From assembly GCF_003334315.1 (NCBI RefSeq), contig NZ_QOWR01000117.1: a stretch of 1,331 bases of DNA; one strand, written 5' to 3'. Source of the DNA: Escherichia coli. GTDB lineage: Bacteria; Pseudomonadota; Gammaproteobacteria; Enterobacterales; Enterobacteriaceae. The notes under the pieces were generated by a model. The model saw only the letters and a list, made by a program, of their open reading frames with translations, had not been told where the DNA came from and did no database searches. Shown one piece after another: positions 1-1,331 of this stretch (positions within the stretch are counted from its first letter, which is position 1; every line of letters starts with the position of its first letter). The position numbers and the translations under genes are program-made.

Positions 1-41
1 TGGATTGGCCCCTATATTTCCATACACTTTTTATCACTTAA
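1..41. repeat. Terminal inverted repeat, IRR-equivalent end (distal to orfA); begins 5'-TG
   Basis: Bases 1-41 (TGGATTGGCCCCTATATTTCCATACACTTTTTATCACTTAA) align with the reverse complement of 1290-1331 (TAGACTGGCCCCCTGAATCTCCAGACAGTTGGTATCACTTAA): about 32 matches over 41 aligned positions plus one 1-nt gap. The outer GGCCCC block and inner TATCACTTAA block are conserved. The orfB stop codon (12-14) lies inside this repeat. Confidence 0.85.
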
Positions 42-917
42 CCCATTACTGGTTCGCCGCCGCAGATATTCCCGTGGCGAACGATACCCCAGTGCACTAT
101 GCGGATGCCATTCGTTGTAATGTTCGAAGGCCTCCGCAAGGTTCTTTACCGCTGTTAACCCGTCGGGTTTCGGCATGATGCTGATGTAATCGCGCTTCAT
201 CGTTTTCACGAAGCTCTCTGCCATCCCGTTGCTTTCCGGGCTACGTACCGCCGTATGTTTAGGCTCCAGTCCTACCATTCTGGCGAACTGACGCGTCTGA
301 TAAGAACGGTAGGCTGAACCGTTGTCTGTCAGCCACTCAACTGGGGATGTCGGCAGGCTGTTACCGAAACGACGCTCCACGGCACCCAGCATGACGTCCT
401 GCACGGTTTCACTGTCATATCCACCGTTACTGGCCGCCCAGTAAAGTGCCTCGCGATCGCAACAGTCCAGAGCGAACGTGACCCGCAGTTTTTCACCGTT
501 ATCACAGCTGAACTCGAAGCCGTCAGAGCACCACCGCTGGTTACTTTCTCCAACGGCCACTTTCCCTGTATGCGCCCGCTTCGATGGCGGTATTTCCGGT
601 TTACGCTCAAGCAGCAGCGCATTCTGACGCATGATGCGGTATACGCGTTTGGCATTGATCACCGCCATGTCGTCAGTTTCTGATTGTCTGCGCAGCAGTG
701 CCCATACCCGACGATAACCATAGGTGGGCAGATCGCCGATAACGGTATGGATACGGGCCAGCGCGTCAGTATCATCAGGCTTGCGCTTGCACCGACGATC
801 CTGCCAGTCCTTCGACCGACGGGCCATGGCATGCAGTTGCGCACGTGAGACCCGGAGGCAACGACTGACAAGGCTTATTCGCCATCCTCCGGCAACAAGG
901 GCACGTGCGCTATCCAC
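12..917 (-). CDS. insD: IS2-type OrfB: DDE (RNase H-fold) transposase catalytic domain, 301 codons, expected to be expressed mainly as the C-terminal part of OrfAB
   Basis: The ORF is in the -1 frame relative to orfA and overlaps it by 43 nt. DDE triad candidates read directly from the translation: D132 in WCSDGFEF (nt 522-524), D198 in WLTDNGSAY (nt 324-326), E234 in [15 protein letters not shown] (nt 216-218), with K241 seven residues after E, which is the IS3-family DD(35)E-K signature. The frame opens with GTG (917..915) and has no Shine-Dalgarno upstream. The stop is TAG at 14..12, inside the terminal repeat. Confidence 0.88.
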
Positions 918-1240
918 TTTTTTTGTCGGCCATATTCAACGGCTTCTTTTAGCAGCTCGTTTTCCATGGTTTTCTTGCCCAACAGGCGTTGCAGCTCTTT
1001 AATTTGCTTCATCGCAGATGCCAGCTCCGACGCGGGCACAACCTGTTCTCCTGCGGCAACGGCTGTAAGGCTGCCTTCCTGATACTGCTTACGCCACAGG
1101 AACAGCTGACTGGCAGCAACGCCATGCTGACGGGCGACCAGCGACACGGTCATTCCGGGCTCAAAACTCTGCTGAACAATGGCGATTTTTTCCTGAACAC
1201 TTCGCCGTCTGCGCTTCTCTGGACCTAAAACATCAATCAT
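12..1240 (-). CDS. Predicted OrfAB fusion transposase (about 409 aa) made by programmed -1 ribosomal frameshift at 917-923
   Basis: OrfA residues 1-108 (through the AAA AAG codons at 922..917), then a -1 slip, then the OrfB frame continuing VDSARAL... This joins the HTH and putative zipper of OrfA to the DDE domain. The architecture is standard for the IS3 family; expression of the fusion is inferred, not shown. Confidence 0.75.
839..910 (-). other. Candidate frameshift-stimulating RNA structure: nested long-range stem-loop starting 6 nt 3' of the slippery site
   Basis: Perfect 9-bp complementarity between 902-910 (CACGTGCGC) and 839-847 (GCGCACGTG), and a 7-bp inner helix between 886-892 (CCTCCGG) and 852-858 (CCGGAGG). 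The 27-nt apical loop contains the orfA stop codon (875-877). No folding energy was computed. Confidence 0.4.
875..1240 (-). CDS. insC: IS2-type OrfA: small HTH DNA-binding regulator/transposition protein, 121 aa
   Basis: ATG at 1240..1238 is preceded by GGAG (1249..1246) with a 5-nt spacer, and the ORF ends at TAA (877..875). The product [52 protein letters not shown]... has a basic N-terminus and a helix-turn-helix typical of IS3-family OrfA (about residues 30-51, nt 1088-1153), followed by a heptad-like Leu/Ile-rich segment (about residues 72-100). The ORF-track start at 1303 is a TTG inside the inverted repeat with no RBS, so I prefer the ATG at 1240. Confidence 0.9.
917..923 (-). other. 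Slippery heptamer A AAA AAG for programmed -1 frameshifting, embedded in an A7G run
   Basis: The minus strand reads GGC CGA CAA AAA AAG TGG in the orfA frame. The plus strand shows seven consecutive T (918-924) flanked by C917 and G925. The orfB frame opens exactly here as GTG GAT AGC. Confidence 0.8.
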
Positions 1241-1245
1241 TCGGA

Positions 1246-1249
1246 CTCC
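1246..1249 (-). promoter_or_regulatory. Shine-Dalgarno sequence (GGAG) for orfA
   Basis: GGAG on the minus strand, 5 nt upstream of the orfA ATG (mRNA: GUUGGAGUCCGA-AUG). Confidence 0.7.
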
Positions 1250-1268
1250 AACGACTAGTCTAAAAACT

Positions 1269-1303
1269 AGTATTAAGACTATCACTAACTTAAGTGATAC
1301 CAA
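1269..1303 (-). promoter_or_regulatory. Candidate orfA promoter spanning the inner part of the left repeat: -35 TTGGTA (1303..1298), 16-nt spacer, extended -10 TGaTAGTCT (1284..1276)
   Basis: Best sigma70-like match found by eye in the 90 nt upstream of orfA on the minus strand. The -10 is weak (T, A and final T conserved) but has an upstream TG. The hexamer assignment is tentative; IS2 is known to carry its native promoter in or next to the left inverted repeat. Confidence 0.35.
1281..1298. promoter_or_regulatory. Operator-like palindrome ATCACT-N6-AGTGAT overlapping the candidate promoter spacer and -10
   Basis: Plus strand 1281-1298 is atcactaacttaagtgat, with 6-bp arms that are exact reverse complements. 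One half-site is the conserved TATCACTTAA block shared by both terminal repeats. This is a plausible binding site for OrfA autoregulation, which is inference. Confidence 0.35.
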
Positions 1304-1331
1304 CTGTCTGGAGATTCAGGGGGCCAGTCTA
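1290..1331. repeat. Terminal inverted repeat, IRL-equivalent end (promoter-proximal, upstream of orfA); tip is TA rather than CA
   Basis: 42-nt partner of the repeat at 1-41 (alignment given there). The plus strand ends ...GTCTA-3', so this terminus carries TA where IS3-family ends normally carry CA, as described for the IS2 left end. Confidence 0.85.

Follow-up and report, generated by a model that had tools for sequence, protein, structure and literature searches.

A predicted IS2-type circle-junction promoter at the abutted ends of an ISEc27/ISEc36 element of Escherichia coli

The 1,331-nt stretch of Escherichia coli DNA analysed here (the window; contig NZ_QOWR01000117.1 of assembly GCF_003334315.1) is one complete 1331-bp insertion sequence (IS) in reverse orientation. 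The element is ISEc27 or ISEc36, a distinct catalogued relative of IS2 within the IS2 group of the IS3 family. Each end holds one half of a promoter that would be assembled only when the two are abutted in a transposition circle: TAGACT at the tip of the left inverted repeat (IRL) as the predicted −10 and TGGAAA in the right inverted repeat (IRR) as the predicted −35. A circle-junction promoter (Pjunc) of this form has been characterised in IS2 and, given that the hexamers and their offsets are the same in both elements, it very probably operates in this element as well. The IS2-type circle-junction promoter is itself already known, and the window holds an identical core in a catalogued relative.

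The element, its ends and the predicted junction promoter

Among 5,426 complete E. coli genomes, copies annotated as ISEc27 ('IS3-like element ISEc27 family transposase') were 100% identical to the window over 1331 bp and copies annotated as ISEc36 were ~99.5% identical, with thousands of further matches at 80–90% belonging to IS2 proper. Direct alignment with IS2 copies gave ~81% DNA identity, and the OrfB protein of the window is 82% identical to that of IS2. The original prediction had called the element IS2; membership of the IS2 group holds, but the element is not IS2 itself. Group membership is evident from two overlapping open reading frames in different frames with a slippery motif, from the 41/42-bp inverted repeats with a 5-bp target duplication, and from family models: the orfA product scored 265.3 bits against the NCBIfam model 'IS2 repressor TnpA' (NF006928; cutoff 229) and the orfB product 602.3 bits against 'IS2 transposase TnpB' (NF006918; cutoff 597), both passing.

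Perfect 5-bp target duplications were found directly outside TAGACT...AATCCA in five independent ISEc27-type insertions at different sites, and thus the ends of the window are the true ends of the element; overall, 49 of the 62 IS2-group copies had such duplications. The IRR equals the IS2 IRR oligonucleotide printed in PMC3299598 at 36 of 41 positions, the differences being at positions 7, 23, 27, 28 and 30, and pairs as an inverted repeat with 1290–1322. Compared with the IS2 IRL, positions 1–27 and 33–42 are identical and the differences are confined to 28–32; positions 1–27 are those that set joining accuracy in IS2. The two tips differ from each other, with TAGACT (TA-3') at the IRL against TGGATT at the IRR.

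In IS2, the Pribnow box of Pjunc arises from the unusual TA-3' end of the left tip and an outward-facing −35 lies in the right end; a 17-bp distance between the two is mandatory and only a junction spacer of 1 bp provides it; 1-bp and 2-bp junction spacers occur at ~90:10 (PMC3219604, PMC3299598). The same arrangement is present in the window. TAGACT at the left tip, read as the reverse complement of 1326–1331, matches TATAAT at four of six positions (T1, A2 and T6 among them), as had been claimed. TGGAAA matches TTGACA at four of six and is likewise present in the right end, at 17–22 rather than at the 18–23 given in the original prediction, a one-base slip (the reverse complement of 18–23 reads ATGGAA). 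Junction spacers of 0, 1 and 2 bp set the hexamers 16, 17 and 18 nt apart respectively, so that the 17-nt distance proposed for a 1-bp spacer is arithmetically exact. Since the published Pribnow box occupies IRL positions 1–6 and the spacing of 17 includes one junction base, the −35 falls at IRR 17–22, which is TGGAAA, and within IRR 1–16 there is a single substitution relative to IS2 (T to G at position 7). The element thus resembles IS2 in its TAGACT −10, its TGGAAA at IRR 17–22 and the 17 nt that a 1-bp junction spacer puts between them, and also in its 41/42-bp inverted repeats, 1331-bp length, A AAA AAG site and 5-bp target duplication. The earlier proposal of an IS2-style junction promoter, in which the left tip provides the −10, the right end the −35 and 1 bp separates the abutted ends, is therefore upheld for sequence and offsets, which are identical to those of the published IS2 ends; its activity is expected by homology. 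The primary paper naming the IS2 junction hexamers is said to be that of Lewis et al. (2004, J Bacteriol 186:858).

By homology, the element would transpose by copy-out-paste-in, as IS2 does. Its transposase would link the CA-3' right end to a position lying 1 bp beyond the left end, and the product would become a circle of double-stranded DNA with one base pair between IRR and IRL. Only in that circle would TGGAAA and TAGACT stand 17 nt from each other to form a sigma-70 promoter. A transcript from this junction, starting at about 1318–1319 on the minus strand, would pass through the IRL and the resident left-end promoter PIRL (TGATAGTCT, 1284–1276) into orfA and orfB and boost the supply of transposase for the integration step; integration would then part the two halves and turn the promoter off. 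For IS2, the asymmetric joining of the IRR 1 bp outside the IRL, circle formation, assembly of Pjunc and its loss on integration have all been described, and Pjunc exceeds PIRL, the resident extended −10 promoter, in strength (PMC3219604, PMC3299598). In the present element, both formation of a circle with a 1-bp spacer and promoter activity are predictions from this homology.

Promoter scores, relatives and natural junctions

Junctions were scored with an approximate sigma-70 weight matrix of our own construction, built from textbook hexamer frequencies and not a calibrated model. The crude score peaked with a 1-bp spacer (9.75) and was lower for spacers of 2 bp (8.56), 0 bp (8.19) and 3 bp (6.42). 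With all four spacer bases and on both strands, the TGGAAA/TAGACT pair was the top junction-spanning candidate, and in the linear element only 1 of 13,030 combinations of position and spacer reached its score. A promoter scan of the linear window, which is blind to a promoter split between the ends, returned only an unrelated internal site. With the canonical CA tip (TGGACT) in place of TA, the −10 scored −0.1 bits instead of 5.8. A junction promoter on the opposite strand was considered and rejected, the best candidate scoring 5.4 with a −35 that matches consensus at 0 of 6 positions.

Several observations weigh against a junction promoter in this element. The two hexamers together match consensus at 8 of 12 positions and the pair is not flagged by a scanning rule that requires 9 of 12, and 13% of shuffled 121-nt junctions hold an equally good pair somewhere; hexamer matching alone is thus weak evidence that would not justify the claim, which draws its weight from sequence identity with the IS2 promoter already characterised. 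Compared with IS2 there is the one substitution in the promoter spacer (IRR 7) and there are four upstream of the −35 (IRR 23, 27, 28 and 30), and it is our own deduction from the published IS2 geometry that TGGAAA serves as the −35. The hexamers also lie inside the transposase-binding and cleavage domains, by which their conservation is confounded. Finally, no ISEc27 IRR-x-IRL junction was found in the 5,426 E. coli genomes, in PLSDB plasmids, in 100,044 representative genomes or in Joint Genome Institute (JGI) metagenome contigs. The frequency of equally good pairs in shuffled junctions would favour a chance promoter-like pair with no function, the least likely of the alternatives that we considered: the pair is position-specific, a random hexamer pair at one fixed position reaching the junction score with P ~0.0003; it is identical to a characterised promoter; and the same spacing is kept in a relative with 74% OrfB identity.

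TAGACT, TGGAAA and the 16-nt IRR tip were kept in 56 of 56 complete IS2, ISEc36 and ISEc27 relatives in phage and prophage contigs, all of them close, so that their conservation is weak evidence alone. The relative with 74% OrfB identity is an element on a Pantoea plasmid, the ends of which are fixed by a 5-bp ATAGG duplication. Its IRL tip reads TAGATT and its IRR tip TGGATT, the sole difference being at position 2, and it carries TGGATA at the same offset as TGGAAA, with the same score and the same spacing as in the window.

These tips bear on a further explanation, that the hexamers are conserved only as cleavage and binding domains of the transposase and have no promoter role here, with transposase made only from the resident left-end promoter. 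Footprints of IS2, in which transposase gives strong protection of IRR 1–11 and of the B element next to it, would agree with this (PMC3299598), as would the consensus match of only 8 of 12. However, a TA tip is a poorer substrate for cleavage than CA, and in IS2 it suppresses donor function (PMC3219604), yet it is kept in IS2, ISEc27, ISEc36 and the Pantoea relative, the two tips of the last differing in nothing else. The retention of a tip that is poorer for cleavage across this clade argues for selection on −10 function, as the IS2 authors proposed. Moreover, Pjunc was essential for integration (Step II) in the IS2 experiments (PMC3299598, PMC3219604), and the core promoter in the window is identical to that of IS2. 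We consider a purely cleavage-related role for the hexamers very unlikely.

More distant relatives lack this arrangement. In those from Enterobacter, Klebsiella and Citrobacter (~67% OrfB identity), both tips read TG and the best junction-spanning candidate stays below 4 bits, and an E. coli IS2-group element of another type (L091) has TGGCAT and TGAGCT at the equivalent positions. Judged from these end sequences, the IS2-type design is clade-specific and unusable as a general test for the IS3 family. One of the Enterobacter IS2-group relatives (L087; 67% OrfB identity) is flanked by an apparent ~15-bp direct repeat, ACGGATTCATCTTTT, at 378–384 and 1722–1736, versus the 5 bp typical of IS2.

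Natural end-to-end junctions were sought by exact-pattern scans for IS2 or ISEc27 IRR-N(0–4)-IRL in the representative genomes and metagenome contigs, which gave zero matches, and elsewhere by BLAST with a synthetic junction. The lack of ISEc27 junctions is compatible with a transient, reactive intermediate. The BLAST query was matched over its full span in 23 complete E. coli genomes and also in some plasmids; the matches inspected fall in two classes, none being an ISEc27 self-junction. The first class comprises head-to-tail IRR-x-IRL junctions between IS2-group ends (Table 1), six of seven with a 1-bp spacer and one with 2 bp, a split which matches the published 90:10 ratio in a sample that is small and possibly non-independent. 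In each, the right end of an IS2 lies beside the left end of the same or of a different IS2-group element. Decay or a frameshift is common in the downstream copy, and its tip is now TAGGCT in two cases. These junctions look like fixed products of end-to-end joining or of end-targeted insertion and, where the spacer is 1 bp, the promoter would be permanently assembled and should drive the downstream element constitutively.

The second class is tail-to-tail, an IS2-group right end being separated by 0–3 bp from that of another IS3-family element, either related or different (L002, L005, L096, L097 and L099). At L002 (1601–1686), a 100% identical ISEc27 copy lies one G from a solo IS2-like IRR. 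Such arrangements suggest that IS2-group elements preferentially insert beside sequences resembling inverted repeats. Two other sets of matches were set aside as junctions: L098, which is not clearly an IS end, and the top Klebsiella plasmid matches (H56–H58), which consist of two pieces ~360 bp apart.

A hybrid ampC promoter has also been described in which an IS2 insertion supplied the −35, at 17-bp spacing (work of Jaurin and Normark, cited and summarised in PMC9330008), and ISEc27 and ISEc36 are often reported beside resistance genes. It could be argued from this that TGGAAA serves mainly as a mobile −35, combining with −10 boxes of the adjoining host DNA to activate neighbouring genes, and that its pairing in the circle is incidental. 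This leaves the conserved TA tip at the other end and the exact 1-bp geometry unexplained, and is in any case compatible with a junction promoter rather than a true alternative to it; as the principal explanation of TGGAAA we hold it to be even less likely than a purely cleavage-related role.

Genes, leader and feature coordinates

The features of the window and the natural head-to-tail junctions are collected in Table 1. The orfA and orfB genes overlap in different reading frames, and the reverse complement of 917–925, CAAAAAAAG, contains the slippery motif; the RefSeq annotation likewise gives 'programmed frameshift'. The resident promoter PIRL is identical to bp 48–56 of IS2, which form an extended −10 promoter (PMC3299598).

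Table 1. Features of the window (strand relative to the sequence as presented) and natural head-to-tail IRR-x-IRL junctions between IS2-group ends (positions within the named locus)
Feature	Position	Strand	Remarks
IRR, right inverted repeat	1–41	-	TGGATTGGCCCCTATATTTCCATACACTTTTTATCACTTAA (read on the + strand); donor end, CA-3' tip
IRR part of the promoter spacer	1–16	-	16 nt, plus 1 junction base = 17 nt; by arithmetic
Predicted outward-facing −35, TGGAAA	17–22	-	IRR 17–22; identical sequence and offset in IS2
orfB	12–917	-	301 aa; catalytic part of the transposase
orfA	875–1240	-	121 aa; ATG at 1240; first gene that the junction promoter would transcribe
Slippery heptamer A AAA AAG	917–923	-	For −1 frameshift giving OrfAB transposase; within the orfA/orfB overlap
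orfA ribosome-binding site, GGAG	1246–1249	-
PIRL, resident weak extended −10 promoter	1276–1284	-	TGATAGTCT; downstream of the predicted junction promoter
IRL, left inverted repeat	1290–1331	-	TAGACTGGCCCCCTGAATCTCCAGACAGTTGGTATCACTTAA
Predicted transcription start	1318–1319	-	~7 nt downstream of the −10; from standard sigma-70 geometry
Predicted −10, TAGACT	1326–1331	-	IRL tip; TA tip gives the critical second-position A
Junction L004 (CP026798.1, Shigella boydii plasmid)	314–1644 and 1646–2976		Two full-length IS2 copies with a single C between; tandem dimer
Junction L003			C spacer; beside a decayed copy with IRL tip TAGGCT
Junction L091			C spacer; beside a different, frameshifted IS2-group element
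Junction L092			A spacer; beside a decayed IS2
Junction L093			C spacer; beside a Pantoea-type element
Junction L095			C spacer
Junction L094			2-bp AG spacer

The divergence of the IRL from that of IS2 is a block of five positions, GTTGG in ISEc27 and AACCA in IS2, which creates TTGGTA at 1298–1303 on the minus strand, 16 nt upstream of the resident extended −10 TGATAGTCT. The two together have a crude score of 7.5, and the resident left-end promoter may on this evidence have a −35 that is absent from IS2. At the position of the OrfA-repressor docking site (1286–1292, minus strand) the window reads TAAGTTA against the published TAAATAA of IS2, with the flanking ATCACT and AGTGAT arms retained, and the specificity of the repressor may differ from that of IS2. 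ISEc27 is unlike IS2 both at IRL 28–32 and in the OrfA operator region.

A second TAGACT was seen in the orfA leader, at 1257–1262 on the minus strand, with GTGATA 17 nt upstream. This pair has the top crude promoter score in the linear element (9.95), and the hexamer overlaps a palindromic region at 1256–1281.

The chromosomal copy that is 100% identical to the window (L001, NZ_CP103529.1; 706–2989 and 3293–4331) disrupts an ArdC-family gene (zincin-like metallopeptidase) and adjoins a Hachiman defence system consisting of HamA and a DEAD/DEAH helicase.

Other junction promoters, possible retuning and significance

Among other elements, IS911 is alike in that the −35 in its IRR and the −10 in its IRL are united only in the circle, where they give a strong but short-lived promoter that integration then destroys (PMC9330008). 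It differs in belonging to another IS3-family subgroup with unrelated end sequences. It has canonical tips at both ends and a 3-bp junction spacer, whereas in elements of the IS2 type the −10 coincides with the tip itself, at the cost of donor activity of the left end. The IS911 junction promoter was reportedly studied by Ton-Hoang et al. in 1997 and by Duval-Valentin et al. in 2001. Elements of the IS30, IS21, IS256 and IS1111 families also carry promoter halves in their two ends that are assembled where inverted repeats abut in circles or tandem dimers (PMC9330008), but their transposase families, sequences and spacers are unrelated.

Through its substitutions relative to IS2, the IRR gains an A5 tract at approximately −45 to −41 of the predicted junction promoter (the reverse complement of 28–32), where the window reads TAAAAAGTG and IS2 reads TAACAGATG. 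The proximal subsite of an UP element is AAAAAARNR, which TAAAAAGTG resembles. It could be proposed that this A5 tract, the TTGGTA −35 and the TAAGTTA operator retune regulation relative to IS2, beyond neutral drift; we think this improbable. If it were true, the promoters of ISEc27 could be stronger than those of IS2, and the specificity of its repressor could allow the two elements to coexist with neither repressing the other.

Beyond correct annotation of the element, the finding matters little, the junction promoter being a published regulatory device of IS2. The literature on ISEc27 and ISEc36 deals with resistance-gene contexts only, and it is there that the right end may be of relevance: the outward-facing −35 at 17–22 can activate genes beside insertions of ISEc27 and ISEc36, which are often near resistance genes on plasmids.

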